Below, piece by piece: positions 21,798-58,940 of a stretch of DNA of 64,000 nucleotides (positions are counted from its first letter, which is position 1; each line of letters begins with the position of its first letter). The stretch lies in assembly GCA_003694545.1 (NCBI GenBank), contig RFKD01000051.1, positions 4,505 through 68,504 on the forward strand. The letters run 5' to 3'. Source of the stretch: Candidatus Parcubacteria bacterium. GTDB lineage: Bacteria > Patescibacteriota > Minisyncoccia > Phycocordibacterales > UBA12088. A program made the translations under genes and the position numbers. The notes beneath the pieces are model-generated. The model searched no databases. It worked only from the letters and a program-made list of their open reading frames with translations, and had not been told where the DNA came from.

Positions 21798-22226
21798 ATG
21801 CGAAACAGGCGCGCCCAACGCCGGTTTGGCCTCTTGGCGCAGGCGCTCGCGGAGCGGTTTTTGGTGGAACGCAAAGGGTGGCACATTTTGGCGCGCAACG
21901 AACGCTCCGGTAGAGCGGAAGCAGATCTTATTGGAAAAGCGCCGGACGGATCACTGCGCGCGGTGGAGGAGAAGGGGGCGCGCGGTGCGATTGACGGGGA
22001 GGGGAATGTTCTGCGCGCTCCGTCCATCTTGCCCGTTGAACACCTCACGCGCGAGCAAATGGCGCGCGTGGCGCGCGTGCTGCGCGATTGGCGGGTAAAA
22101 GGCGGCGCTCACAAAAAGGCGGGCGCGGGGAAATGGGCCGTGGATGTGTGCCTCGTTATTGTTGACGAGCAAACCGCTCGCGCCCGCGTTGAACATCTGG
22201 AAGCTCTGATTGAGGGGCAGGGGTAA
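21798..22226 (+). CDS. YraN (UPF0102) family putative endonuclease
   Basis: AERFLVERKGWHILARNERSGRAEADLIGKAPDGSLRAVEEKGARG matches the YraN core (..GE.DLI.......VEVK.R). Start set to the Met at 21798. Confidence 0.65.
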   Translation: MRNRRAQRRFGLLAQALAERFLVERKGWHILARNERSGRAEADLIGKAPDGSLRAVEEKGARGAIDGEGNVLRAPSILPVEHLTREQMARVARVLRDWRVKGGAHKKAGAGKWAVDVCLVIVDEQTARARVEHLEALIEGQG

Positions 22227-22485: not shown

Positions 22486-22782
22486 TCAGTTTTCTATCCA
22501 GCAGGCGGCGGTTCGTTCCAATTTTCCCGCAACAGATTTTATTTCATCAAAAGCGTCTGACGAAGCCAGTTCTTCAGCGTGATGAGCGGATAAAATCCAC
22601 TCTTTCAATGGTTCAATCCAATTGTTTCCCTTTCGCCCAAAATCAGCCTTTCTTTTGTTAAGGTCTGTTTTTGTTTTAATGAGCTCGTCTTTTTTGGCAA
22701 GATACGTTTCTTTTTCAATACTGCCGTCCAAAAAGGCGTTGACCAATCTATTCAACTTTTGCTGGGTTTCCTCTTGTCCCAA
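22486..22782 (-). pseudogene. 5'-truncated remnant of a large serine recombinase (C-terminal coiled-coil segment only)
   Basis: NRLVNAFLDGSIEKETYLAKKDELIKTKTDLNKRK resembles the C-terminal coiled-coil of large serine recombinases (..AYLDGxIsKEEYlxKKxELexexxeL..). There is no catalytic N-domain. It lies 120 nt from the tRNA-Pro 3' end. Confidence 0.4.
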
Positions 22783-22822
22783 TCTTCCCGTGCGCGGGCG
22801 ACAAAGTGGAACTCCCTATTTG

Positions 22823-22851
22823 TTGACTAAAGCAAAAATAATTCATATACT
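22823..22851 (+). promoter_or_regulatory. sigma70-like promoter for the XRE gene and the downstream defence operon (TTGACT-17 nt-TATACT)
   Basis: -35 TTGACT at 22823-22828, a 17-nt spacer, and -10 TATACT at 22846-22851, about 55 nt upstream of the XRE start. The region is AT-rich, so a chance match is possible. Confidence 0.35.
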
Positions 22852-22907
22852 ACCAATATAAGCAAGAACTTGAGTATACATAACTATATTAATAAAGTTT
22901 TATAATT

Positions 22908-23117
22908 ATGCCAAAGAGTAAAGCAACTATCGGCGAGAATATACGGAAGTACCGCCTGCAAAAAAATATGTCGCAAGACCGCCTGTCTAAATTGGCGGAT
23001 GTCGCTTTTCATACCATCGTCAAGATAGAATCCGGCGAGACGCCAAATCCTACAATAGAAACGGTCAGGAAAATCGCCGCCGCGCTTGGCGTGAGTATTG
23101 ATGATTTAATGAAGTAA
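22908..23117 (+). CDS. XRE-family helix-turn-helix transcriptional regulator (Cro/C1-type)
   Basis: IGENIRKYRLQKNMSQDRLSKLADVAFHTIVKIESGETPNPTIETVRKIAAALGVSIDDL, a canonical HTH_XRE. Its stop is 2 nt before the start of the next gene. Confidence 0.85.
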   Translation: MPKSKATIGENIRKYRLQKNMSQDRLSKLADVAFHTIVKIESGETPNPTIETVRKIAAALGVSIDDLMK

Positions 23118-23119
23118 CT

Positions 23120-26100
23120 ATGACGAACCATTCCGATCTCACATTTATCACAAACGAAGAAGGACAGAATCTCCTCGAGCGTTTCAGGGTGTTGATAAAA
23201 GACACCGAGTTCTTTGATGTCCTTGTAGGCTATTTCTATACCAGCGGCTTTTATACCCTATATAAATCATTGGAGAAAACTAAAAAAATCAGGATTCTTA
23301 TCGGCATCAGCACCAACCGGCAGACACTTGATCTGATAGAAAAGGCAGAGCAACAGGAGCTTACATTCTCCCATGCGGAGACGAAGGAACACTTTTCCAA
23401 TCTGCTTGCTGGAGAAATGGAGAGCGCGGAGGACAGCAGAAAAGTAGAAGAAGGGGTTACAAAGTTTATGGAGTGGTTGCAAAACGGAAAACTCGAAATC
23501 AGGGCGTATCCGACAGAAAATATCCACGCCAAGCTTTACATTATGACTTTTGTAGAGAGCGACAGAGACGTCGGGAGGGTCATCACAGGTTCAAGCAATT
23601 TTACCTACTCAGGCTTAGTGGAAAATCTTGAGTTCAATGTGGAGTTGAAAAACCGCGCTGATTATGAATTCGCCAAAGAAAGATTTGAGGAGCTTTGGAA
23701 AGAAGCTGTTGACGTCAGCGAAAAATACATTCAGACGATTCAGGAAAAAACCTGGCTCAACCCGAATGTAACCCCCTATGAGCTATACCTAAAATTTCTG
23801 TACGAATATTTTAAAGACGAGTTAAGCCAAACCGATGAAATGTTTTGTCGCTACTTACCCCACGACTTCAGGAAACTTGAATATCAGGAGCAAGCGGTTT
23901 TAAACGCCAAAAAAATCCTCGAGGAATACGGTGGTGTATTCATTTCGGATGTTGTGGGTTTGGGAAAGACTTACATTTCAGCCATGATCGCCGGTCAGCT
24001 TGACGGCAGAACGCTGGTCATCGCTCCGCCGGTTTTGCTTGACAAAACAAATCCCGGCTCATGGCCAAATGTGTTTTCCGATTTTCGGATTTCGGCGGAC
24101 TTTGAGTCCATTGGAAAATTAGACGATATCCTGCGCAGAGGAACAGAAAAATACAAGAACATTATTATAGATGAAGCCCATCGATTCCGCACGGAAACCA
24201 ACATCACCTACGAAAAATTAGCCGAAATCTGTCGAGGCAAGCGAGTGATTCTGGTCACAGCCACGCCGTACAACAATTCCCCAAAAGACATCTTAAGCCA
24301 GATAAAGCTGTTCCAAAAAGCAAGGAGAAGCACGATTCCCAATCTGCCTGATTTGGAAGGCTTCTTTGGAGGATTGGAGAGGAAGCTTAAAAAGCTCGAC
24401 AGGCAAAAAGATTACTCCGAATACATCAGAGTAGTTAAAGAGAATGCCAAAGAAATCCGCGAGAAGGTGCTCAAGTATTTGATGGTGCGTCGCACCAGAA
24501 CTGAAATCTTAAAATACTTTCCCGATGATTTGGCTAAGCAAAATCTCAAGTTTCCGGATGTCGATGATCCAATGCCGCTTTTTTACCAGCTTAATGAAGA
24601 AGAAGACAAAATATTCAACACAACCATAGAGATGATTACCAAAAAATTTACTTACGCTCGTTACACGCCACTTTTGCCAAAATACTATAAAGGTTCAATT
24701 GACCTTTTTGAGGAACAATCCCAGAAGAACATGGGTAAGTTCATGAAGATTCTTTTGGTGAAACGGCTTGAGAGCAGCTTCTTTGCTTTCAAGCAATCAA
24801 TTGGCCGCTTTATCTCCTCTTATGAGATGTTTATCAAAGAGTTCAAAAAGGGACATGTTTATATCAGTAAAAAATACGCGAACAAGATTTTTGAATATCT
24901 GGAAAATGATGATGACGAAGCCATCCAAAAGCTGATCGATGGGGGTAAAGCCGAAAGATACGACAGCGAGGATTTTACCGAAGACTTTATCAAAGATCTG
25001 GAAAGCGATCTCACTATATTGACCACTATCTTATCTCTCTGGCAAAACATTAAACGAGATCCCAAACTACTCACGTTCCTTGATGAACTTTCAAAAAATA
25101 AAATACTCCAAAATAAGCTCATCGTTTTTACCGAATCAAGAGAAACCGCCGAATATCTGGCAAGAAATATCAATAATAAATTTGGAGACATCACGCTTTG
25201 TTTTACTGGCAGATCAGAAGAAGCCACCCGCGATAAAGTGATCGATAATTTTGATGCAAAAGTGCGCCATCCCAAAGACGATTATCGCATTCTGGTTTCG
25301 ACCGAGGTCTTGTCAGAGGGCGTCAACCTGCATCGCTCCAATGTGGTCGTAAATTATGACATACCCTGGAATCCAACCCGCATGATGCAAAGGGTCGGAC
25401 GCATCAACAGGATCGATACGACGTTCGACAAAATCTATACTTTTAATTTTTTCCCAACCAAACAATCGAACGACCAGATCAAACTCAAAGAAGCGGCAGA
25501 GGCTAAAATCAATGCTTTTCTTACATTGCTAGGCGGCGATGCGGCGTTGTTAACTGAAGGCGAACCGGTTGACTCACATGAGCTTTTCAATCGGTTAATC
25601 TCCAAAAAGACCCTGATTGGCGAAGACGAAACCGAAGAAAGCGAGCTTAAGTATTTGCAAGTGATTAAAAATATTCGGGACAAAAACCCTGACCTATTTG
25701 AAAAAATCAAGCGTTTGCCCAAGAAAGTCCGGACAGCAAAAAAGGATGTTGGACATCGAGATTCACTGGTAACTTATTTCAGGCGTGGCAAGCTACAGAA
25801 ATTTTTTATAGCTGATCAAAGCTCGGTTGCCAGGGAACTTGATTTTATAAGTGCTGCACGTATACTCGCAAGTGCCAGTGATGATAAAAAACAAAAACTG
25901 CCGGAAAAGTTTTTTGACCTTCTGGATAAAAATAAAGAGGCTTTTCTTCGTGCCACTACCGAAGAGATGGTTGAACCCGTAAAAAAACGTGGTCATGACA
26001 GCGCCGCACAATTGCTCAAAATTCTCAAAGCTACAGTGGGGAACACACAACCGTTCACGGACGAGCAGGAGCAGTATATTAAACAGGTCATCGTCCAGTT

Positions 26101-26308
26101 GGAGGAAGGCGGTTTACCTAGGCAAACAGTCAAAGAAACCCTCAAGGCGCTGAATGAACTCAAGCAGGATTTAATTAACCCGTTTAAAGTGCTGGCTACA
26201 CTGCAAAGCCACATCCCCGAGCAATTTTTACGACAGCACTATGCAGAGCAGAATCCGCGTTCAGTCGGGAAAAGGGAAGTGATTCTATCAATGTATTTAA
26301 CAGGATAA
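23120..26308 (+). CDS. PLD-family (HKD) nuclease domain fused to an SNF2-family helicase (putative restriction / DNA-translocase subunit)
   Basis: N-terminal PLD-like region (KKIRILIGIST...NIHAKLYIMTF...VITGSSNFTYSGL: HxK...GSxN). SNF2 motifs I GLGKTYIS, II IIIDEAHRFR, III VILVTATPYNN, and helicase-C motifs LVSTEVLSEGVNL and NPTRMMQRVGRINR. Confidence 0.85.
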   Translation: MTNHSDLTFITNEEGQNLLERFRVLIKDTEFFDVLVGYFYTSGFYTLYKSLEKTKKIRILIGISTNRQTLDLIEKAEQQELTFSHAETKEHFSNLLAGEMESAEDSRKVEEGVTKFMEWLQNGKLEIRAYPTENIHAKLYIMTFVESDRDVGRVITGSSNFTYSGLVENLEFNVELKNRADYEFAKERFEELWKEAVDVSEKYIQTIQEKTWLNPNVTPYELYLKFLYEYFKDELSQTDEMFCRYLPHDFRKLEYQEQAVLNAKKILEEYGGVFISDVVGLGKTYISAMIAGQLDGRTLVIAPPVLLDKTNPGSWPNVFSDFRISADFESIGKLDDILRRGTEKYKNIIIDEAHRFRTETNITYEKLAEICRGKRVILVTATPYNNSPKDILSQIKLFQKARRSTIPNLPDLEGFFGGLERKLKKLDRQKDYSEYIRVVKENAKEIREKVLKYLMVRRTRTEILKYFPDDLAKQNLKFPDVDDPMPLFYQLNEEEDKIFNTTIEMITKKFTYARYTPLLPKYYKGSIDLFEEQSQKNMGKFMKILLVKRLESSFFAFKQSIGRFISSYEMFIKEFKKGHVYISKKYANKIFEYLENDDDEAIQKLIDGGKAERYDSEDFTEDFIKDLESDLTILTTILSLWQNIKRDPKLLTFLDELSKNKILQNKLIVFTESRETAEYLARNINNKFGDITLCFTGRSEEATRDKVIDNFDAKVRHPKDDYRILVSTEVLSEGVNLHRSNVVVNYDIPWNPTRMMQRVGRINRIDTTFDKIYTFNFFPTKQSNDQIKLKEAAEAKINAFLTLLGGDAALLTEGEPVDSHELFNRLISKKTLIGEDETEESELKYLQVIKNIRDKNPDLFEKIKRLPKKVRTAKKDVGHRDSLVTYFRRGKLQKFFIADQSSVARELDFISAARILASASDDKKQKLPEKFFDLLDKNKEAFLRATTEEMVEPVKKRGHDSAAQLLKILKATVGNTQPFTDEQEQYIKQVIVQLEEGGLPRQTVKETLKALNELKQDLINPFKVLATLQSHIPEQFLRQHYAEQNPRSVGKREVILSMYLTG

Positions 26309-26312
26309 TAAT

Positions 26313-29147
26313 ATGGACAGACAACAAGCTCAAAAGCTGATTAAAGAAACTTTTGAAAATCCTTTTGATAAAGGCAAATTTGCCCGTTTTATAAAAAATC
26401 TCCTTAACCGAGTTGAAGACGCCCCTTTCACGTACCAAGGCAATTATATCCCCGAAGCTTACCAACCTTACATCTCATCGTTGGAGCGTCTTTACAAATA
26501 TTCAGGCGGAGAACATAAGATTGACATACTTGTCGTTCAACTGAAAAAACAAACTTCGCTGGAACGCGCCCGTACCATGCAGCGCAATTTCATTGCCCGG
26601 TACTTAAACGGCAGCCGTGGCGGTGAAATGAAAGATGCCGCGCTGGTTGCCTTTGTTTCTCCTGGTGAAGTGGACTGGCGTTTTTCGCTGATTACAATGG
26701 ACTACCGTTTTGAAGAAACAAAAGACGGAAAAGTAAAAGTCAAAGAAGAATTTACTCCGGCAAGGCGCTGGTCGTTTCTGGTAGGAAGCAACGAAGCCAG
26801 CCACACCGCCCAGAGCCGACTGGTGAACATTCTCGTCGATGATGAGCACCATCCCACACTCCAGCAACTGGAAGAAGCCTTCAACATTGAAACTGTTACC
26901 AAAGAGTTCTTCATCAAATACCGCGAGATGTTTATCCGTACGAAGGAAGAACTGGATACAGTGGTGGCACGAGACGCCAAAATCAAAGCCGATTTTGATG
27001 CCAAAGGTATTGACACGGTCAACTTTGCCAAAAAGCTGCTCGGCCAAATCGTCTTTCTTTATTTTCTGCAAAAGAAAGGCTGGTTTGGCGTCAAGCGGGA
27101 CGCCAAATGGGGTACGGGCTCCAAACATTTTTTACGAGAACTTTTCGAAGGCAAATATGGCAGCTATAACAATTTTTTCAACGATATTCTTGAACCTCTC
27201 TTTTATGAAGCGTTGCGCATCGACCGCAGTCATGACGACCATTATTACAGCCGGTTCAATTGTAAGATTCCGTTTCTGAACGGAGGGCTGTTTGATCCTA
27301 TCGGCAATTACGACTGGGTACACACGGACATCAACATACCGAACGAGCTTTTTTCCAACACAGTAAAAACCAAAGAAGGCGATATTGGTAACGGTATTTT
27401 AGATATCTTTGACCGCTACAACTTTACGGTCAAGGAAGATGAGCCTTTGGAAAAAGAGGTCGCCATCGATCCGGAGCTTTTGGGTAAAACGTATGAAAAA
27501 TTCAACGCTATCCGTCCGGATAATTTTGAAGAATACAAGGCGGCTTTAAAGAGCGGGCAAAAGGGTGCTGAAAACAAGTTCAACAAGACATTTGGTGTTT
27601 ACTACACCCCGCGGGAAATCGTGCATTACATGTGCAAGCAGAGCCTGATTAATTATCTTTTCACTAAGGCGGAAGAAGAGGGGATTTCTAACGATATTAA
27701 AAAGCAAGACATCGAAGACCTGATCGAAATCGGCGAGATGATTACCGAACACGAGGCAACCGCTCTTAACAAAGAGGATAAAATTAGAAACGGCATCCAG
27801 AAATCCACGAAATACGAGAGGCTTTCATCCGACAGTATACGAAAAAATGCCAAAATCATAGATAACTGGCTGGCTGACATTACCGTGTGCGATCCGGCAG
27901 TGGGTTCCGGCGCCTTCCCGGTGGGCATGATGCATGAAATTGTCAAGGCTCGTAATCTCCTTTCCACATTTATTCAAGACCCTAACCGCACCATTTATAC
28001 CTTCAAACGCGAATGCATCGAAAAATCCCTCTATGGCGTGGACATCGACCCCGGCGCGGTGGAGATTGCCAAACTGCGGCTCTGGCTGTCGCTGGTGGTG
28101 GATGAGGATGATATCCGCCAGATCAAGCCTCTGCCGAATTTGGATTATAAAATTGTGTGCGGAAATTCGCTGCTGGGTGTGGAGAAGAATTTGTTTAATA
28201 ACCAACTGTTTGCCGAACTGGAACGACTGAAGCCGCTTTACTTTCATGAAACCAATCCCACAAAAAAGCAGGAATACAAAAAGGAGATTGATGACTTGAT
28301 TAGCCAAATTACCAACGGACATACGGAATTTGATTTTGAGGTCTATTTTTCCGAGGTGTTTCATAAGAAGGGCGGGTTTGATGTGGTGATTGGAAATCCG
28401 CCGTACATCCAACTTCAAAAAGCGATTGATGATAAGCAAAAATACGCTGATCTCTATAAAAATGCATGCTACGAGACTTTTGATAGGTGCGGAGATATTT
28501 ACTGCCTCTTTTATGAAAAAGGCATACACATTCTCCGACCCAATGGCGTTTTGTGTTTTATCACCAGCAATAAATGGATGCGGGCAGGCTACGGCAAATC
28601 TCTCCGAAGATTTTTCCTCAAGCATAATCCCAGACTTTTGATTGATTTAGGTCCCGGCGTTTTTGAAAGCGCGACCGTGGATACCAATATTCTCATAATG
28701 CAAAAATCCGAGGAAAAACCCGCCCCGGTGTGTCTCGATGCTGTTACCTTAACTGAAGAGGCAAAAGAATCGGACATTGCTTTGTATATTAAGAAGAACA
28801 GAAAACGCTTGACGGCTCTGAGCGAGAATGCTTGGTTTATTGGCAGCGCTGCTGAACAGCAACTCAAAGAAAAAATCGAACGCATAGGTAAACCACTGAA
28901 AGATTGGGATGTGAATATTTATTATGGTATTAAAACCGGCCTAAACGAAGCCTTTATCATCACTACTGAAAAGCGTAATGAAATACTAGCAAACTGCAAA
29001 GATGAAGAAGAAAGAAAACGCACCGAAGCCATCATCAAACCTATTTTACGAGGCAGAGATATCAAGCGATATTATCAAGCGATATTATTACGAATGGGCA
29101 GGGTTTTGGGTGATAGTAATTCCAGCAGGCTGGACAAATGTAAATAA
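26313..29147 (+). CDS. gamma-class N6-adenine DNA methyltransferase (Eco57I/PglX/type IIG-like), interrupted near its C-terminus by a frameshift
   Basis: FGVYYTPREIVHYMCKQSL (motif X), CDPAVGSGAFPVG (motif I), VIGNPPYIQLQ (motif IV NPPY), and a long N-terminal domain typical of PglX/type IIG enzymes. The reading frame ends KPILRGRDIKRYYQAILLRMG... just after the ILRGRDIKRY TaqI_C hallmark. Confidence 0.85.
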   Translation: MDRQQAQKLIKETFENPFDKGKFARFIKNLLNRVEDAPFTYQGNYIPEAYQPYISSLERLYKYSGGEHKIDILVVQLKKQTSLERARTMQRNFIARYLNGSRGGEMKDAALVAFVSPGEVDWRFSLITMDYRFEETKDGKVKVKEEFTPARRWSFLVGSNEASHTAQSRLVNILVDDEHHPTLQQLEEAFNIETVTKEFFIKYREMFIRTKEELDTVVARDAKIKADFDAKGIDTVNFAKKLLGQIVFLYFLQKKGWFGVKRDAKWGTGSKHFLRELFEGKYGSYNNFFNDILEPLFYEALRIDRSHDDHYYSRFNCKIPFLNGGLFDPIGNYDWVHTDINIPNELFSNTVKTKEGDIGNGILDIFDRYNFTVKEDEPLEKEVAIDPELLGKTYEKFNAIRPDNFEEYKAALKSGQKGAENKFNKTFGVYYTPREIVHYMCKQSLINYLFTKAEEEGISNDIKKQDIEDLIEIGEMITEHEATALNKEDKIRNGIQKSTKYERLSSDSIRKNAKIIDNWLADITVCDPAVGSGAFPVGMMHEIVKARNLLSTFIQDPNRTIYTFKRECIEKSLYGVDIDPGAVEIAKLRLWLSLVVDEDDIRQIKPLPNLDYKIVCGNSLLGVEKNLFNNQLFAELERLKPLYFHETNPTKKQEYKKEIDDLISQITNGHTEFDFEVYFSEVFHKKGGFDVVIGNPPYIQLQKAIDDKQKYADLYKNACYETFDRCGDIYCLFYEKGIHILRPNGVLCFITSNKWMRAGYGKSLRRFFLKHNPRLLIDLGPGVFESATVDTNILIMQKSEEKPAPVCLDAVTLTEEAKESDIALYIKKNRKRLTALSENAWFIGSAAEQQLKEKIERIGKPLKDWDVNIYYGIKTGLNEAFIITTEKRNEILANCKDEEERKRTEAIIKPILRGRDIKRYYQAILLRMGRVLGDSNSSRLDKCK

Positions 29148-29718
29148 AGGTGAAGTCACCGCAGAAAAATTTATAAACATGAAGTTTCCTGCATTAATGC
29201 AGTATTTGAAAATATATGAAGAAAAAGCCAGAAAACGCGATGATCAAGGTGATTATTGGTGGGAATTACGCCATTGTGCCTACTACCCCGAATTTGAGAA
29301 AGAGAAGGTGGTGTGGAGTGATATTGCCTCAGAACCAACTGTTACCGTTTTACCTAAGGGATTATATTTCAATAATACCGTTTACATGGTTTCTTCAAGA
29401 ACCCCACGCTATTTTGCCGGTATTTTAAATTCTCGCGTGATAAAATGGTATTTCTCTAAAATAGCAACGGATCTAGGAGAAAAAGGTCGGCGCTTTTTTA
29501 AAATCTTTGTTGAGGTTATGCCTTTGATACCCATCACCCCTGCCAACCAGCCCATTGTTCAGCAAATAGAGGCATTGGTAGATAAAATCCTTGCAGAAAA
29601 GAAACAAAACCCGCAAGCAGACACCAAAGAATACGAACACCAGATTGACCAGCTCGTCTATAAACTCTACGATCTGACACCGGAGGAAATTAAGATTGTG
29701 GAAAATTCACGATCGTGA
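29002..29718 (+). CDS. C-terminal TaqI_C-like target-recognition segment of the methyltransferase, in the +1 frame (continuation after the 13-bp duplication)
   Basis: The +1 frame gives DIIKRYYYEWAGFWVIVIPAGWTNV...WWELRHCAYYPEF...YFAGILNSRVIKWYF, which matches the TaqI_C / type IIG specificity-domain pattern (WxELR..YY, LNS.v..wy). Confidence 0.7.
   Translation: MKKKENAPKPSSNLFYEAEISSDIIKRYYYEWAGFWVIVIPAGWTNVNKGEVTAEKFINMKFPALMQYLKIYEEKARKRDDQGDYWWELRHCAYYPEFEKEKVVWSDIASEPTVTVLPKGLYFNNTVYMVSSRTPRYFAGILNSRVIKWYFSKIATDLGEKGRRFFKIFVEVMPLIPITPANQPIVQQIEALVDKILAEKKQNPQADTKEYEHQIDQLVYKLYDLTPEEIKIVENSRS
29064..29089 (+). repeat. perfect 13-bp tandem duplication (caagcgatattat x2) causing a +1 frameshift inside the methyltransferase
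   Basis: Read directly from the sequence: 29064-29076 equals 29077-29089. Removing one copy restores ...ILRGRDIKRYYYEWAGFWVIVIPAGW..., the expected TaqI_C continuation. Confidence 0.9.
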
Positions 29719-31967
29719 ATATGATCACTCGCGTAATAAAAATTAAAAACTGTGCGTCATTTGTTGATTTTGTACCGGGTGCCGACCTGCCGGCATTTAG
29801 GAAATACAACTTAATTTACGGATGGAATGGATCGGGTAAAACCAATTTTTCACGAGTATTACGTTCTTTTGAATTACGGGAAAATTATTATGCTGACTTG
29901 AATAATCCAACAGAATTTGAATTTCAACTTGATAATGGTACAGCAATAAGTCAACAAGATTTAACGGTTTTCCCAAATATTCGAGTGTTTAACAAGGATT
30001 TTATCAATGAGAGCGTTTTTTGTACCGGCGGACCAAAGCCGATTTTCTTTCTGAGTAAAGAAAGTAAGGAAGACCAAGAAAAAATCATGCAACTAGGGAA
30101 TCAATTACGGAAATTGAGAGAAGATTTAGATTTTAAAAGAGCACTCCTTGATAAAGCTAAAATAAGAAAAGAAAAAATGCTTTCTGATAAAGCGCGTGAT
30201 ATTAAAACCGCTCTCACAACATCTCGTAGTGATAAGTACAGAAATTATGAACGGCCAAATCTAGAAAAAGCAATTCAGGACAACGTGAATGAACTTAAAA
30301 GCAATGTCGATAAATATAAATTGGCAGGGGATAGAGTTGCCATTCTCCAAAAGACAATACAACAAACGACTAAGCCAAAAGTTGAATCTTTGGCATTCCC
30401 AGATTTTGATATTTCTGAAACTGTAAGTGAGGTAAAAAAAGTTTTACAGACTACTGTTACTTCTCATATTATTGAGAGTCTTAAATTGGATGAGATGCTG
30501 AATAAGTGGGTAGAGCATGGGCTTTCTATTCACAAGGAAAGAGGGCTGAAAAATTGCGCTTTTTGTAATCAAGTAATCCCGCATCATAGATTTTCGGAAC
30601 TAGAACAACACTTTAACGATGATTACCAAAGGCTTATTGAGGAGCTGAGTAGCTTAAAGCAAACACTTGAAGGTAAAAAAATTTCAATTTCTTTTCCAGA
30701 CGCTTCAAGTTTTTATGACGATTTAATAGAAGAGTATTTAAACGCCAAAAAAGAAGCTGAAGAAATAGTTAAGAAATTTAATCAAAACATAGATTCTCTT
30801 ATTTCTGCTCTTGTGCAGAAGGAGCAAAGGCCATTTTCAAAAGTAGATTTAGAAGAATGGAAACAAGTTGAAATAAGGCCATTTGAAAATATAAACATTA
30901 TTATTTCAAAGCATAACGAAAGGTCAGACAATTTTGATAAACAAATAGATGAAAGTAAACACATTTTAGAGATGCACTATATTGCAGATTTTATCCATTC
31001 TTATTTTGAACAGATGGATGAAATAGAAAAACTAGAGAAAGAAGTTTCGGAATTAGAGAATGAAATAAAAACTAACGAGACGAAAGAAAACGAGTTAAAA
31101 AACTCACTCATAAGTCATCGCATTCCCGCTAATCGGATTAACGAAGACTTGAAGCATTTTTTGGGACGTGATGATATTCGCCTAGTTGCTACCGATAAGG
31201 AGGAAGGTTATCAGATTTTCCGTAACGGAACGCTTGCAAAAGATTTAAGCGAGGCCGAAAAAACTGCATTGGCGCTCGTATATTTTCTGACAAAAATACA
31301 CGAGAAAGGGTTTGACTTGAAAAATGGTGTGATTGTTATGGATGATCCGGTTTCAAGCTTTGATTCTAATTCAATTTTTCAAGCATTTGGGTTTATCAAA
31401 GAGTCAATCAAAGAGGCAAAACAGATTTTTATTTTGACACATCACTTTGACTTTTTTAGACAAGTGAAAAATTGGTTTTCGTATTACAAGGAAGATGAAC
31501 GAGAATTCTTTATGATGGTATGCGGCAAAGAAGATTCAGTGAGAAAGTCCCGAATTGCAACAATCGACAAATTACTGATTGGCTATGAATCCGAATACCA
31601 CTTTTTGTTTAGCATTTTGTACAGATTTGCGAAAAATAATGAAGTACAATTGGAAAACGCATATCCAATTCCAAATATTGCGCGTAAATTTCTTGAGAGT
31701 TTTTTGGCTTTCAGAGTACCTGTTTTAGCAAACGGACGACAAAAAGAGCCGAACTTGTACCATAGATTGGAAAAAATTGATTTTGATAAAAAAAAGAAGG
31801 AACGTATTCTCCGGTTTATTGAAACTCACTCCCATCCGCGATACGAGTCTGGAGTACAAGATTTTGACATGACTATTTTGGGAGAGACGAAAGAAATCGT
31901 GAATGATTTACTTGCTTTAGTAGAGCACGAAGACAAAAAACACTTTGAATTTTTAGTGAAAAGTTAG
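29715..31967 (+). CDS. RloC/PrrC-like AAA_13 family ATPase (restriction-linked anticodon-nuclease-type protein) with coiled-coil CxxC zinc-hook
   Basis: Walker A NLIYGWNGSGKTNFSRVL at the N-terminus. A roughly 400-aa K/E-rich coiled-coil contains NCAFCNQVIPHH (CxxC). ABC-signature-like LSEAEKTALALVYFL, Walker B/D-loop VIVMDDPVSSFDSNS, H-loop IFILTHHFDF, and a C-terminal R/E/H-rich segment (KKERILRFIETHSHPRYE). GTG at 29715 overlaps the upstream stop (GTGA); an alternative ATG is at 29721. Confidence 0.75.
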   Translation: MNMITRVIKIKNCASFVDFVPGADLPAFRKYNLIYGWNGSGKTNFSRVLRSFELRENYYADLNNPTEFEFQLDNGTAISQQDLTVFPNIRVFNKDFINESVFCTGGPKPIFFLSKESKEDQEKIMQLGNQLRKLREDLDFKRALLDKAKIRKEKMLSDKARDIKTALTTSRSDKYRNYERPNLEKAIQDNVNELKSNVDKYKLAGDRVAILQKTIQQTTKPKVESLAFPDFDISETVSEVKKVLQTTVTSHIIESLKLDEMLNKWVEHGLSIHKERGLKNCAFCNQVIPHHRFSELEQHFNDDYQRLIEELSSLKQTLEGKKISISFPDASSFYDDLIEEYLNAKKEAEEIVKKFNQNIDSLISALVQKEQRPFSKVDLEEWKQVEIRPFENINIIISKHNERSDNFDKQIDESKHILEMHYIADFIHSYFEQMDEIEKLEKEVSELENEIKTNETKENELKNSLISHRIPANRINEDLKHFLGRDDIRLVATDKEEGYQIFRNGTLAKDLSEAEKTALALVYFLTKIHEKGFDLKNGVIVMDDPVSSFDSNSIFQAFGFIKESIKEAKQIFILTHHFDFFRQVKNWFSYYKEDEREFFMMVCGKEDSVRKSRIATIDKLLIGYESEYHFLFSILYRFAKNNEVQLENAYPIPNIARKFLESFLAFRVPVLANGRQKEPNLYHRLEKIDFDKKKKERILRFIETHSHPRYESGVQDFDMTILGETKEIVNDLLALVEHEDKKHFEFLVKS

Positions 31968-32416
31968 TGGAAAGTGTTACCCAACTCGTTTGAGAATCTT
32001 TTTAAGAGTTTCTGTTGTCTCCCGAAAACCCGGGCGAAGCCCGAAGGCGAGTGGGCAAAAAGAAAAGGGGGAATGGGGGAAATGAATTTTTGCCTGCTCG
32101 CCAATACCGCGCCGCAGGCGCGGCAGGGGTGGGAAGCGGCTCGTCTCTGCTCAAGCCAGAGAAACAAAGCCCGCAAAGCGCGTTTCCTTAATTGAAAAAG
32201 AGTTTTGCGCGCGCCCGTTAAAAGAAAAAGAAATTGTTGCGTGCTTTACTTGCCGCCGTCAGGCGGCGAGCCGCTGGGCGGGTTCTGCGCCCGTCAGGGC
32301 GCAGATTGTCGCTCAAAGAAAGTTCGAGCGGCGTTCAGTAATTGCGACTAAGGGAATGAAAGAGAGGTGTTGCAAGTATTGCTTTATTCACTCTTCACAA
32401 CAGGGGGGTCAAACGG

Positions 32417-33868
32417 TTGCGGAGCAAGAAACTACGCTGGGAAAAAGAACCGCAACGATTGTTTGAGGCTAACCTTGAGGAACTCCTAGACATCTTTTTG
32501 GCATCCGAATTTTGCACGAGCTTCGGTGCAAGAATTGACACCCTCGGGAGAGAAAAAATGGCGCGCCGGTGCTCATGGGAGACCTACCACTGCTTCAAAC
32601 GAATCTTGCATTTCTTACAAAATCCAGAACCACGCGAGCTAGCAAAGTCCACATTGCGCGATGTGGCGGTGTGGTACAGTTGCGGCATGCTCCATGTGTG
32701 GTGGCAAGACGACTTACCCCAACGCGAGGGATCGTTGGTGCGGAGGATTCTGTCGCTCGCGGCGGGGGGCGAAATTATTTCGTTTGCCGGCGGGTTGCCG
32801 AACGCGAAGCATTTTCCCGTGCAGGAAGTGGGGGAGGTGCTTGCCGCGATTTCGCAAGAGCCGCCCTTGATGCGCCTTGCCTTGCAGTATGGGGAAACCG
32901 ACGGCTACTATCCTTTGCGGGAAATTATTGCTGAAAGCTACGCGCGCAAAGACAATTTACCTATTAAGCCAGAACAGGTTGGAATTACCACTGGCTCTCA
33001 GCAGGCAATTGATCTTCTCTCGCGCGTTTTGCCGCGCGGGAGCGTTGTCGCGGTTGAGCGTCCCACCTATCTCGCGGCGCTCTCGGCGCTGCGCTTGGGG
33101 GAGCACGATTTTGTGGAGGTAGTGCTTGAAGAAGAAGGGCCCGAGGTTGGCTCGCTGCCGGAACGCGCTGCTGCCTTCTATGCTGTTCCTAACTTTCAAA
33201 ATCCTTCTGGTATCACGTGGAGCAACGCGCGGCGCGAGGCGATCGCCAGGTGGGCCCACGAACGAGGGGCGCTTTTGGTAGAGGACGATCCGTATGGCGA
33301 AATCCGCTTTCGCGGCGATCGCCAGCGGCCGCTTGCGGCGTTTGCTCCGAAGCACACACTCTTGCTCGGCTCCTTTTCAAAAATTCTCGCGCCGGGGATG
33401 CGGGTGGGGTGGTTTGTGGCGCCGGAAGGGGGTGGGCGCCTCTTTGAGGAAATGCGCTTCGTGAAGGAATCCGCCGATTTGCACACGAGCACCTTCGCGC
33501 AAGTGGTGATTGCCGAGTACTATCGCCGCGGCTTCGCGCAAGCGCACATTGAGGCTGTGGCGCGCGCGTATGGCAAGCGGGCGGCGCTGATGCGCGAACT
33601 GTTCCATGAGCTTCTTCCCGAGGTGCGCACGACGGACCCGGAAGGAGGTATGTTCCTCTGGGCGGTCCTGCCGGAAGGGATGGATGCGCGCGAACTGTTT
33701 ACCATCGCACTAGAAGAAGGGGTGGCGTTCGTTCCGGGGGATGTCTTTTACGCTTCCGCGCCCGAGAGGCGCACGCTACGGATCAATTTTACGGCGGAGG
33801 ATGAAGGAGGCATTGAGGAGGGGGTGCGTCGTCTTGCGCGCGCGTACGCGCGCTGTCTGCGGCGGTAG
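32417..33868 (+). CDS. PLP-dependent aminotransferase (class I/II fold) family protein
   Basis: LVRRILSLAAGGEIISFAGGLPN, the PLP-lysine region FSKILAPGMRVGWFVAP, and C-terminal GGMFLWAVLPEG. The start is uncertain; alternative Met codons at 32558 and 32687. Confidence 0.75.
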   Translation: MRSKKLRWEKEPQRLFEANLEELLDIFLASEFCTSFGARIDTLGREKMARRCSWETYHCFKRILHFLQNPEPRELAKSTLRDVAVWYSCGMLHVWWQDDLPQREGSLVRRILSLAAGGEIISFAGGLPNAKHFPVQEVGEVLAAISQEPPLMRLALQYGETDGYYPLREIIAESYARKDNLPIKPEQVGITTGSQQAIDLLSRVLPRGSVVAVERPTYLAALSALRLGEHDFVEVVLEEEGPEVGSLPERAAAFYAVPNFQNPSGITWSNARREAIARWAHERGALLVEDDPYGEIRFRGDRQRPLAAFAPKHTLLLGSFSKILAPGMRVGWFVAPEGGGRLFEEMRFVKESADLHTSTFAQVVIAEYYRRGFAQAHIEAVARAYGKRAALMRELFHELLPEVRTTDPEGGMFLWAVLPEGMDARELFTIALEEGVAFVPGDVFYASAPERRTLRINFTAEDEGGIEEGVRRLARAYARCLRR

Positions 33869-57878: not shown

Positions 57879-58940
57879 TCAGTTGGAGATGGAAGGGTGG
57901 TCCTCAGTAGAGACTTTAGCTTCAGTTTCTCCGGCTGTTGTGCTGGTTTCGCCCGAGCCGCTTTGCGTTTGGGCGCGCACGGACCCTAACGCGGCGCGAA
58001 CCTCACGCGTTGCGGCAACCAGTGCGGCGTGCGCGCGCTTGATGGCCTCGATGGGTTCGCGCGCCTGTTCTCGGCGCGCCTGCGCCTGCTCGCGCAGCTG
58101 CGCAGCGAGATTGTTCATTGTTTCGGCTGTATTTGTAGTCTGATCGTCTGCAGACACATTAACATCAGCCTCGACTTCAACATTCAGCGCAGCCACCACT
58201 CCTTTTGCTTGCGCGATTGCGTTGCGTGCTTCTTGTAGTTTTGCGCGAGCGGCCGTCCCGTCGAAGCCGCGTTCACGAAACCCTTCTTCCAATTCGGCTA
58301 TGCGGCGCTCTAATTTATCAGCTAGTTTTTCCAGGCGCACCACTGCCGCCTCCAGCCGTTCTTTCACACGACGGAACATGTCGGCAAGGTTATTGCGTGC
58401 ACGCTCAAGAATTTGCTCCTTTCGCGCCTCTAATCGCTCTTGCGCCTTTTCTTTACGCTCTTCAAATCGCTCTTTCGCTTTTTCCCTGCGTTCTTCAAAC
58501 CGCTCATGAGCTTTATCTTTGGGGTTTTCCATCTCTTGCTTTTCGGCAAGAGGAACCACATTGTCTCTTCCTCTGGGTGGGTAGCTCGGCGGCAGGGTGG
58601 GGGAGTGATCACCTGCCGACGCCGGACGCGCCTCACCGTCTCCCGGTTTCCCTACCGGCTTACCATCACGCGACGGCGGTAGCGGGACTGGGAGGTGCGG
58701 TTTCTCGCGGGAGGGCTTTACCTCCCCTTCGACTTCTGCTTTCACAGACACAGGATCGTCTTGAGCTTTTTCGGATACCACCGCTTCGCCTCTGGCAGAG
58801 CCTCTGGCAGATGTTTCTTGCGCGTACGCGCTTTGAGCGAAGACGGTGAGCGACGCAATGCACACTGCCGCCGCGAAGCCGGCAAAGCCCAACAAGTGTG
58901 TGCGGGAACGCTGGGCAAGGGTAAGGTAGGAGTATGACAT
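57879..58940 (-). CDS. hypothetical secreted coiled-coil protein with ERFEERxEKA repeats
   Basis: Signal peptide (LLGFAGFAAAVCIASLTVFAQSAYA), a Pro-rich segment, then repeated KAKERFEERKEKAQERLEARKEQ heptad-like units. Confidence 0.5.
   Translation of the reverse strand: MSYSYLTLAQRSRTHLLGFAGFAAAVCIASLTVFAQSAYAQETSARGSARGEAVVSEKAQDDPVSVKAEVEGEVKPSREKPHLPVPLPPSRDGKPVGKPGDGEARPASAGDHSPTLPPSYPPRGRDNVVPLAEKQEMENPKDKAHERFEERREKAKERFEERKEKAQERLEARKEQILERARNNLADMFRRVKERLEAAVVRLEKLADKLERRIAELEEGFRERGFDGTAARAKLQEARNAIAQAKGVVAALNVEVEADVNVSADDQTTNTAETMNNLAAQLREQAQARREQAREPIEAIKRAHAALVAATREVRAALGSVRAQTQSGSGETSTTAGETEAKVSTEDHPSISN

Follow-up and report, generated by a model that had tools for sequence, protein, structure and literature searches.

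Frameshift inactivation of restriction-modification genes is commonplace. In Streptococcus pneumoniae, the capsule genes cap3A, cap8E and tts undergo reversible phase variation by tandem duplication (Waite et al., 2001, 2003, as cited in PMC4243769). Cj0031 of Campylobacter jejuni, a Type IIG enzyme, is phase-variable through a poly-G tract (PMC4889913). Milman et al. (2023; PMC9881135) described Cj0031-like Type II genes that adjoin a gene for a PLD+SNF helicase, and in which segments of the recognition domain are inverted in a programmed manner. Here, we describe a perfect 13-base-pair (bp) tandem duplication that breaks the reading frame of a methyltransferase gene in a stretch of 64,000 nucleotides (nt) from a Candidatus Parcubacteria bacterium (assembly GCA_003694545.1, contig RFKD01000051.1; hereafter the window, in which all positions are counted). 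The duplication is probably a recent, one-off loss of function of the slippage type, and one of at least three parallel inactivations of the same gene, rather than a programmed switch.

The tandem duplication and its sister alleles

The 13-nt unit TATCAAGCGATAT stands in perfect tandem, in the context GGCAGAGA TATCAAGCGATAT TATCAAGCGATAT TAT TACGAATGG. Tandem Repeats Finder reports a period of 13, 2.2 copies, 100% matches and a score of 58, and found no other repeat in the methyltransferase gene. The duplication is non-random. A lag-13 match run of 16 bases is expected by chance only ~0.001 times per 64-kilobase (kb) window, and the window contains 2 perfect tandem duplications with a period of at least 10, against 0.08 per composition-preserving shuffle. 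The string reported in the initial annotation, caagcgatattat, does occur twice and represents the same repeat in another register, but its positions were one base too high; the two copies lie at 29063-29075 and 29076-29088.

The reading frame that starts at 26313 terminates in ...RGRDIKRYYQAILLRMGRVLGDSNSSRLDKCK* at 29147, after 944 codons of which the last 27 are out of frame. As had been proposed from the first inspection, removal of one copy lets the frame continue through the 29002-29718 frame. The resulting 1130-residue open reading frame (ORF) reads ...RGRDIKRYYYEWAGFWVIVIPAGW..., ends at 29718 and is collinear with more than 60 intact homologues. The earlier description of a frameshift at the start of the TaqI_C domain is anatomically correct as well. 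Pfam places this domain at residues 909-1065 of the repaired protein (4e-15), so that the frame is broken after residue 917, 8 residues inside the domain, and TaqI_C is in frame only once one repeat unit is removed.

The methyltransferase has the hallmarks of the Eco57I/MmeI/PglX superfamily, both in its motifs and in its Pfam matches. Besides the C-terminal TaqI_C domain, the repaired protein matches Eco57I (5e-43), N6_Mtase and MmeI_Mtase, and the PADLOC model REase_MTase_IIG PDLC03596 gives 1487 bits, with matching stretches along the whole length. It has thousands of homologues, mostly of 1100-1160 residues. The S-adenosylmethionine-binding motif DPAVGSGAF and the catalytic motif NPPY (GNPPY) are kept in the 944-residue product. 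In the 61-sequence alignment, the stretch KPILRGRDIKRY directly ahead of the break is nearly invariant, and past EWAG the sequence turns variable. A structural model of an intact, 76%-identical homologue (P0002; mean pLDDT 82.8) found CamA (4e-20), PglX (5e-16), MmeI (7e-14), BpuSI (1e-12) and DrdV (4e-12) in Foldseek searches. In the sequence alignment, CamA 158-514 corresponds to residues 688-1051 of the repaired protein, and the C-terminal part of CamA (~350-514), which we take to be its DNA-recognition region, corresponds to the part from residue ~875 onwards. The 944-residue product therefore retains its catalytic core but is ~210 residues short, in the DNA-recognition and C-terminal region. 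Methylation of specific sequences would most likely be lost as a result, as would any restriction targeted through the methyltransferase.

Comparison of orthologous loci, which had been suggested as a check, shows that the one-copy state is ancestral. The sister loci are L004 (GCA_026004575.1, contig BPJK01000002.1), L006 (GCA_039803485.1, JBDRYR010000055.1) and L014, a Logan contig from DRR290133. All three carry one copy of the 13-mer, and KPILRGRDIKRYYYEWAG is found in frame in each of the 61 aligned homologues, implying the one-copy state. Hence, the two-copy state is derived and belongs to the window lineage. Probably, the one-copy sequence TAT-CAAGCGATAT-TAT gave rise to two units by slipped-strand or microhomology-mediated misalignment between its TAT triplets. 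Promotion of slippage by a hairpin within the unit (ATATC-AAGC-GATAT) was considered and rejected, as the predicted DNA hairpin of −1.7 kcal/mol is non-significant (z = −0.9).

The out-of-frame remainder of the window gene contains no stop codon and no further indel, and differs from the sister alleles at a single base (29231). Since the downstream frame is undamaged apart from this one substitution, the duplication must be recent. The frame disruption is the only disabling lesion found in the window allele. Thus, the gene is inactivated but not yet decayed. This bears out the suggestion of a recent inactivation in the initial annotation, whereas the additional downstream mutations that it named as the sign of a dead pseudogene are absent.

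Each sister has a frameshift of its own. In the L004 gene a C is missing at position 29378 of the window (ACC to AC), which breaks the frame at residue ~1018 and leaves a 1033-residue product (GIW68768.1); this deletion is confirmed by the independent Logan contig from DRR290133. The L006 gene lacks a G at 27594 (TGGT to TGT), with a break at residue ~434 and two pieces of 444 and 691 residues (MEO0272779, MEO0272780). The two deletions occurred in CC and GG dinucleotides, neither of them in a repeat tract. Over 23 kb the window and L004 differ by 24 single-nucleotide polymorphisms (SNPs) and three internal indels. A three-way alignment of 12.35 kb contains only five indels. Each lineage has one that disrupts a reading frame, and in every case it is that of the methyltransferase gene. 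The remaining pair comprises an in-frame GGC (22101-22103) and an intergenic G (32403). The neighbouring genes are intact: the three alleles of the PLD-SNF2 gene differ by 3 SNPs, with no indel, and its proteins in the window and L004 are identical, while the AAA_13 gene is the same in all three at the DNA level.

Judged from the reading frames, every sampled allele is OFF, each by a different lesion. Among 5.8 billion protein clusters there was no intact allele with an identity of at least 90%, and an exact look-up of the repaired 1130-residue protein in a collection of 15 billion sequences did not find it; its best full-length match is 76% identical. Scans of metagenome_contigs and genome_contigs with the 26-nt left flank, aimed at further one- or two-copy alleles, gave 0 hits; as neither collection includes this contig, they carry no information on heterogeneity. 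Inactivation of the methyltransferase in three near-identical genomes from different hot-spring samples points to a loss that is tolerated or favoured.

A more distant locus appears to show a later, multiply broken stage of decay. In L007 (JGI 3300059600, contig Ga0587145_17998, 6190-6820; 72% identical), an extra G or A at GCAGGGATTG shifts the frame by +1, at a point 15 nt past the duplication position. The recognition domain contains several more stops and frameshifts, and the adjacent 1064-residue PLD-SNF2 gene is intact. A candidate fourth independent frameshift, in an 89%-identical homologue that is one A short in an A5 run, was not counted because its contig has a coverage of 2.6x.

The Logan contigs of DRR290133 are interrupted close to the duplication site. 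The end of one contig and the start of the next (L014) overlap by 19 nt inside the purine-rich GAAGAAGAAAGAAAACG, 30-48 nt upstream of the site. A bubble between one-copy and two-copy alleles was considered as the cause and rejected, as the break lies at 29012-29030 instead of the expected 29060-29075, and the downstream contig represents the one-copy allele with the deleted C.

One-off loss, reversible switch and other explanations

Several points weigh against a one-off loss. By its nature, a perfect duplication reverts more readily than a point indel, and exact loss of one unit restores the ORF. Because the downstream frame is undamaged, reversion from OFF to ON is possible. Phase variation is known among relatives in the protein family: Cj0031 is switched through a poly-G tract (PMC4889913), and programmed inversions act on Cj0031-like genes that have a PLD+SNF gene beside them (PMC9881135). 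In addition, the deleted G of L006 is known from one metagenome-assembled genome (MAG), and proof of selection would take more than three lesions; if frameshifts fell at random over ~10.5 kb of coding sequence, the 3.4-kb methyltransferase gene would receive all three with a probability of ~0.03.

The alternative that survives best builds on some of these same observations. A reversible switch of the pneumococcal capsule type, with the duplication as the OFF state and slippage loss of one unit as the ON state, could serve as bet-hedging of defence versus DNA uptake. The duplication is perfect, removal of one unit restores the ORF exactly, and no further lesion burdens the downstream frame. The switch also has a precedent in the reversible in-ORF duplications of the S. 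pneumoniae capsule genes (Waite et al., 2001, 2003, via PMC4243769), and in the phase-variable relatives of the enzyme family mentioned above. Nevertheless, we consider it unlikely. With just two copies of the unit, and a one-copy allele that offers no more than the 3-nt TAT...TAT microhomology, switching from ON to OFF would be rare. No ON allele was found in the collections searched. The other two OFF alleles are 1-bp deletions outside repeats and not readily reversible, and the Logan assembly of SRR7905025 passes the site unbroken with two copies.

The phase-variable switch raised in the initial annotation is not supported by the form of the tract either. With 2.2 copies of a 13-mer, it is neither a long homopolymer nor an array of many 2-7 nt units, and therefore the locus does not belong to the class of simple-sequence-repeat phasevarions. 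Nor were ON and OFF variants in repeat number seen at one tract, as the one-copy alleles are OFF through other lesions. The locus does have a perfect in-ORF duplication whose exact loss restores the frame, as in cap3A. Yet, the other OFF alleles represent 1-bp deletions instead of a spectrum of duplications, which argues against variation of the cap3A type. We also looked for inverted repeats and silent recognition-domain cassettes as possible drivers of inversion-type variation; none was convincing, which also speaks against a switch. The literature was searched for measured rates at which short tandem duplications revert, but it yielded nothing directly usable, and our statements on rates of switching and reversion draw on general knowledge.

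A bolder variant, to which we attach a similarly small probability, is that the methyltransferase gene serves as a preferred, safe 'off button' in wild hot-spring populations, where selection would silence the system again and again by any frameshift that happens to arise, with the duplication as the one allele able to flip back ON by precise slippage. If so, the window would contain a capsule-type reversible duplication switch on a defence system of an uncultivated thermophile, and the genomes with a broken methyltransferase would provide natural genetic evidence that PLD-SNF2 is harmless without it.

It is far less probable that the enzyme is split but functional, such that the 944-residue core and a separately translated C-terminal fragment reassemble and can still methylate or target DNA. 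Separate specificity subunits exist among restriction enzymes, as in BcgI and the S subunits of Type I systems, and gene callers do predict a downstream TaqI_C ORF (e.g., from ATG 29179, 179 residues, in the JGI annotation). However, this ATG is not preceded by a Shine-Dalgarno-like sequence, and the fragment lacks the first ~60 residues of TaqI_C, such that the nearly invariant RGRDI stays on the other piece. Moreover, all intact homologues are single-chain, and the sisters break at residues ~434 and ~1018, sites so different that there is no common split architecture. The 944-residue and 179-residue ORFs are one broken gene, and annotations should be read with this in mind.

Least probable of all is the sequencing or assembly error that the initial annotation had allowed for, with a genome that truly has one copy: although the source is a metagenome assembly, and JGI 3300014796 and SRR7905025 may share one sample, an identical two-copy sequence was produced by two different assemblers, one of them behind contig Ga0181962_1121741 of JGI 3300014796 and the other behind the Logan contigs of SRR7905025, which were built independently. 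The window adds a further record of this locus, one base apart from the JGI contig (21970, 7 kb away from the duplication). Moreover, a clean, perfect 13-nt duplication is atypical of short-read or de Bruijn graph errors. SRR7905025 is a hot-spring metagenome (PMC7674949). The exact 944-residue protein is present in two assemblies. At position 21970 the window has an A, where the JGI contig, L004 and L006 have a T; the window is therefore a different record from this population, perhaps that of the MAG with RME29809.1.

Gene neighbourhood and possible function of the module

The methyltransferase gene lies in a low-GC island of ~9.5 kb (Table 1). In all three sister genomes the island occupies the same site, flanked by a UPF0102 gene and an aminotransferase gene. 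Between 22500 and 32200 we found no integrase and no clear flanking direct repeats.

Table 1. Positions of the duplication, the broken gene and its neighbours in the window.
Feature	Coordinates	Strand	Basis and remarks
Perfect tandem duplication, TATCAAGCGATAT x2 + TAT	29060..29088	+	Sequence, Tandem Repeats Finder; the extra 13 nt give a +1 frameshift
Truncated methyltransferase ORF, 944 residues	26313..29147	+	N-terminal domain of unassigned function, gamma-class N6-adenine methyltransferase core, first part of the recognition region
Methyltransferase remainder, out of frame: most of TaqI_C and C-terminal helices	29089..29718	+	Within ORF 29002-29718, still open
SNP-dense patch in the methyltransferase gene	28568..29004	+	~45 differences from L006 in 440 nt, mostly synonymous
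Low-GC island, four co-oriented, tightly packed genes	22500..32200	.	GC 0.33-0.47 vs ~0.55 in the flanks
HTH_3 protein, 69 residues, controller (C) protein-like	22908..23117	+	Domain search; directly upstream of the helicase gene
PLD (HxK...GSxN) + SNF2 helicase fusion, 1062 residues, intact	23120..26308	+	Domain search; presumed translocase-nuclease partner
AAA_13 ATPase, 748 residues	29721..31967	+	PADLOC candidate PDC-S06; starts 3 nt past the stop of the repaired methyltransferase

The frameshift strikes the methyltransferase/specificity subunit of a putative two-gene, helicase-coupled restriction-modification module, consisting of a PLD-SNF2 nuclease-translocase and an Eco57I/MmeI/PglX-like methyltransferase. 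We examined five loci: the window, L007, L008, Thermodesulfobium acidiphilum (CP020921) and Thermocrinis minervae (LT670846). In each of them the PLD-SNF2 gene lies directly upstream of the methyltransferase gene, with 4-nt gaps or overlaps, and thus the PLD nuclease gene always adjoins the methyltransferase, while the third gene varies. The AAA_13 ATPase is not a conserved partner, as other genes, or none, are found at its position elsewhere. It matches PDC-S06 with 710 bits and has weak matches to PrrC and MADS mad3, and its long, coiled-coil-like middle part contains a CxxC motif (NCAFCNQ).

The nuclease of the module is probably the PLD domain of the SNF2 partner. Residues 1-500 of the methyltransferase have no Pfam match, and D71 is invariant but not followed by a conserved (D/E)xK among the 61 homologues. 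In the P0002 model, the N-terminal domain is alpha/beta. A broken methyltransferase beside an intact PLD-SNF2 gene is evidently compatible with the persistence of a genome, from which we infer that target finding by the nuclease depends on the methyltransferase/recognition subunit, much as it does in Type I and Type III systems. Loss of the methyltransferase would then silence the whole module, with no self-restriction. The earlier surmise that PLD-SNF2 is guided by the recognition domain as well is a reasonable one, given that the two genes are adjacent in all five loci and that genomes with a broken methyltransferase and an intact nuclease persist.

DrmA and DrmB were not found among the four genes of the island, and hence it is not a class 1 DISARM system; the models for DrmD and DrmMI gave weak matches, far below the NCBIfam cut-offs. 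No BREX or DISARM partner genes are present at the island.

Recombination probably gave rise to the patch at 28568-29004, which lies a short way upstream of the duplication. In a narrower sub-patch (28871-28933), 10 positions differ between L004 and the window, and YYGIKTG becomes YRGVLTG in L004. A second SNP-dense patch relative to L006 lies in the aminotransferase gene (33316-33373, ~22 differences in 60 nt), in nearly identical surroundings. From their pattern of differences, both patches look like short recombination tracts from diverged alleles.

Some further observations concern the wider region. The GGC insertion in the UPF0102 gene, which yields GGCGGC, is specific to the window and absent from L004 and L006, and represents a second small slippage-type insertion of this lineage. 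The strongest tandem array of the window is unrelated to the duplication; it lies at 58432-58520, with a period of 33 nt, 2.7 copies, 76% matches and a Tandem Repeats Finder score of 108. The near-identical syntenic loci are labelled 'Candidatus Parcubacteria bacterium' in two cases (GIW68767, RME29809) and 'candidate division WOR-3 bacterium' in another (MEO0272778), and at least one taxonomic label among the sister MAGs must be wrong.

Taken alone, the duplication is an ordinary and very recent loss-of-function mutation in a defence gene, to which the comparison with its sisters adds modest value. The parallel triple inactivation is mildly interesting. Triple silencing with an intact nuclease-helicase suggests that, in this poorly characterised module, restriction depends on the methyltransferase/recognition subunit and that its loss is not suicidal, and an active system may be costly in hot-spring populations.

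Comparison with known systems

The loci of PMC9881135 have the same gene-pair architecture as ours, with a Cj0031-like gene next to a PLD+SNF helicase gene. However, no invertible repeats or spare cassettes were found at the window locus. At the level of the protein, the methyltransferase and recognition fold is shared with MmeI, BpuSI, DrdV and the BREX protein PglX, according to the Foldseek comparison of the P0002 model. True single-chain Type IIG/IIL enzymes such as MmeI, BpuSI and DrdV have a PD-(D/E)xK nuclease domain at the N-terminus of the same polypeptide; in the N-terminal domain of the methyltransferase described here, a conserved D...ExK nuclease motif is not evident.

Simple-sequence-repeat phase-variable systems, such as the Type III mod phasevarions and Cj0031, likewise target a methyltransferase/specificity gene, and the superfamily of the window gene is related to Cj0031. 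In both cases switching off would silence methylation and restriction together. In contrast to those systems, the window gene has no homopolymer or multi-copy short repeat, and shows no repeat-number polymorphism at a shared tract.

The pneumococcal capsule duplications, as far as they are presented in PMC4243769, resemble the window duplication in form: a perfect duplication within an ORF shifts the frame, and exact excision would restore the gene. Yet, no mixture of ON and OFF states, alternative duplications or switching rate has been observed here, and the other OFF alleles are point deletions.

The locus also resembles frameshift pseudogenes of methyltransferase and specificity genes in restriction-modification systems, a form of ordinary decay in defence islands, with which it shares a broken frame, a horizontally acquired low-GC island and independent lesions in its sisters. 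It differs from them in that the lesion of the window is single, perfectly revertible and without secondary damage, which marks the earliest stage of such a process, and in that all three sampled strains are hit in one gene while the nuclease gene is intact. The duplication adds a further case to a familiar type of event.

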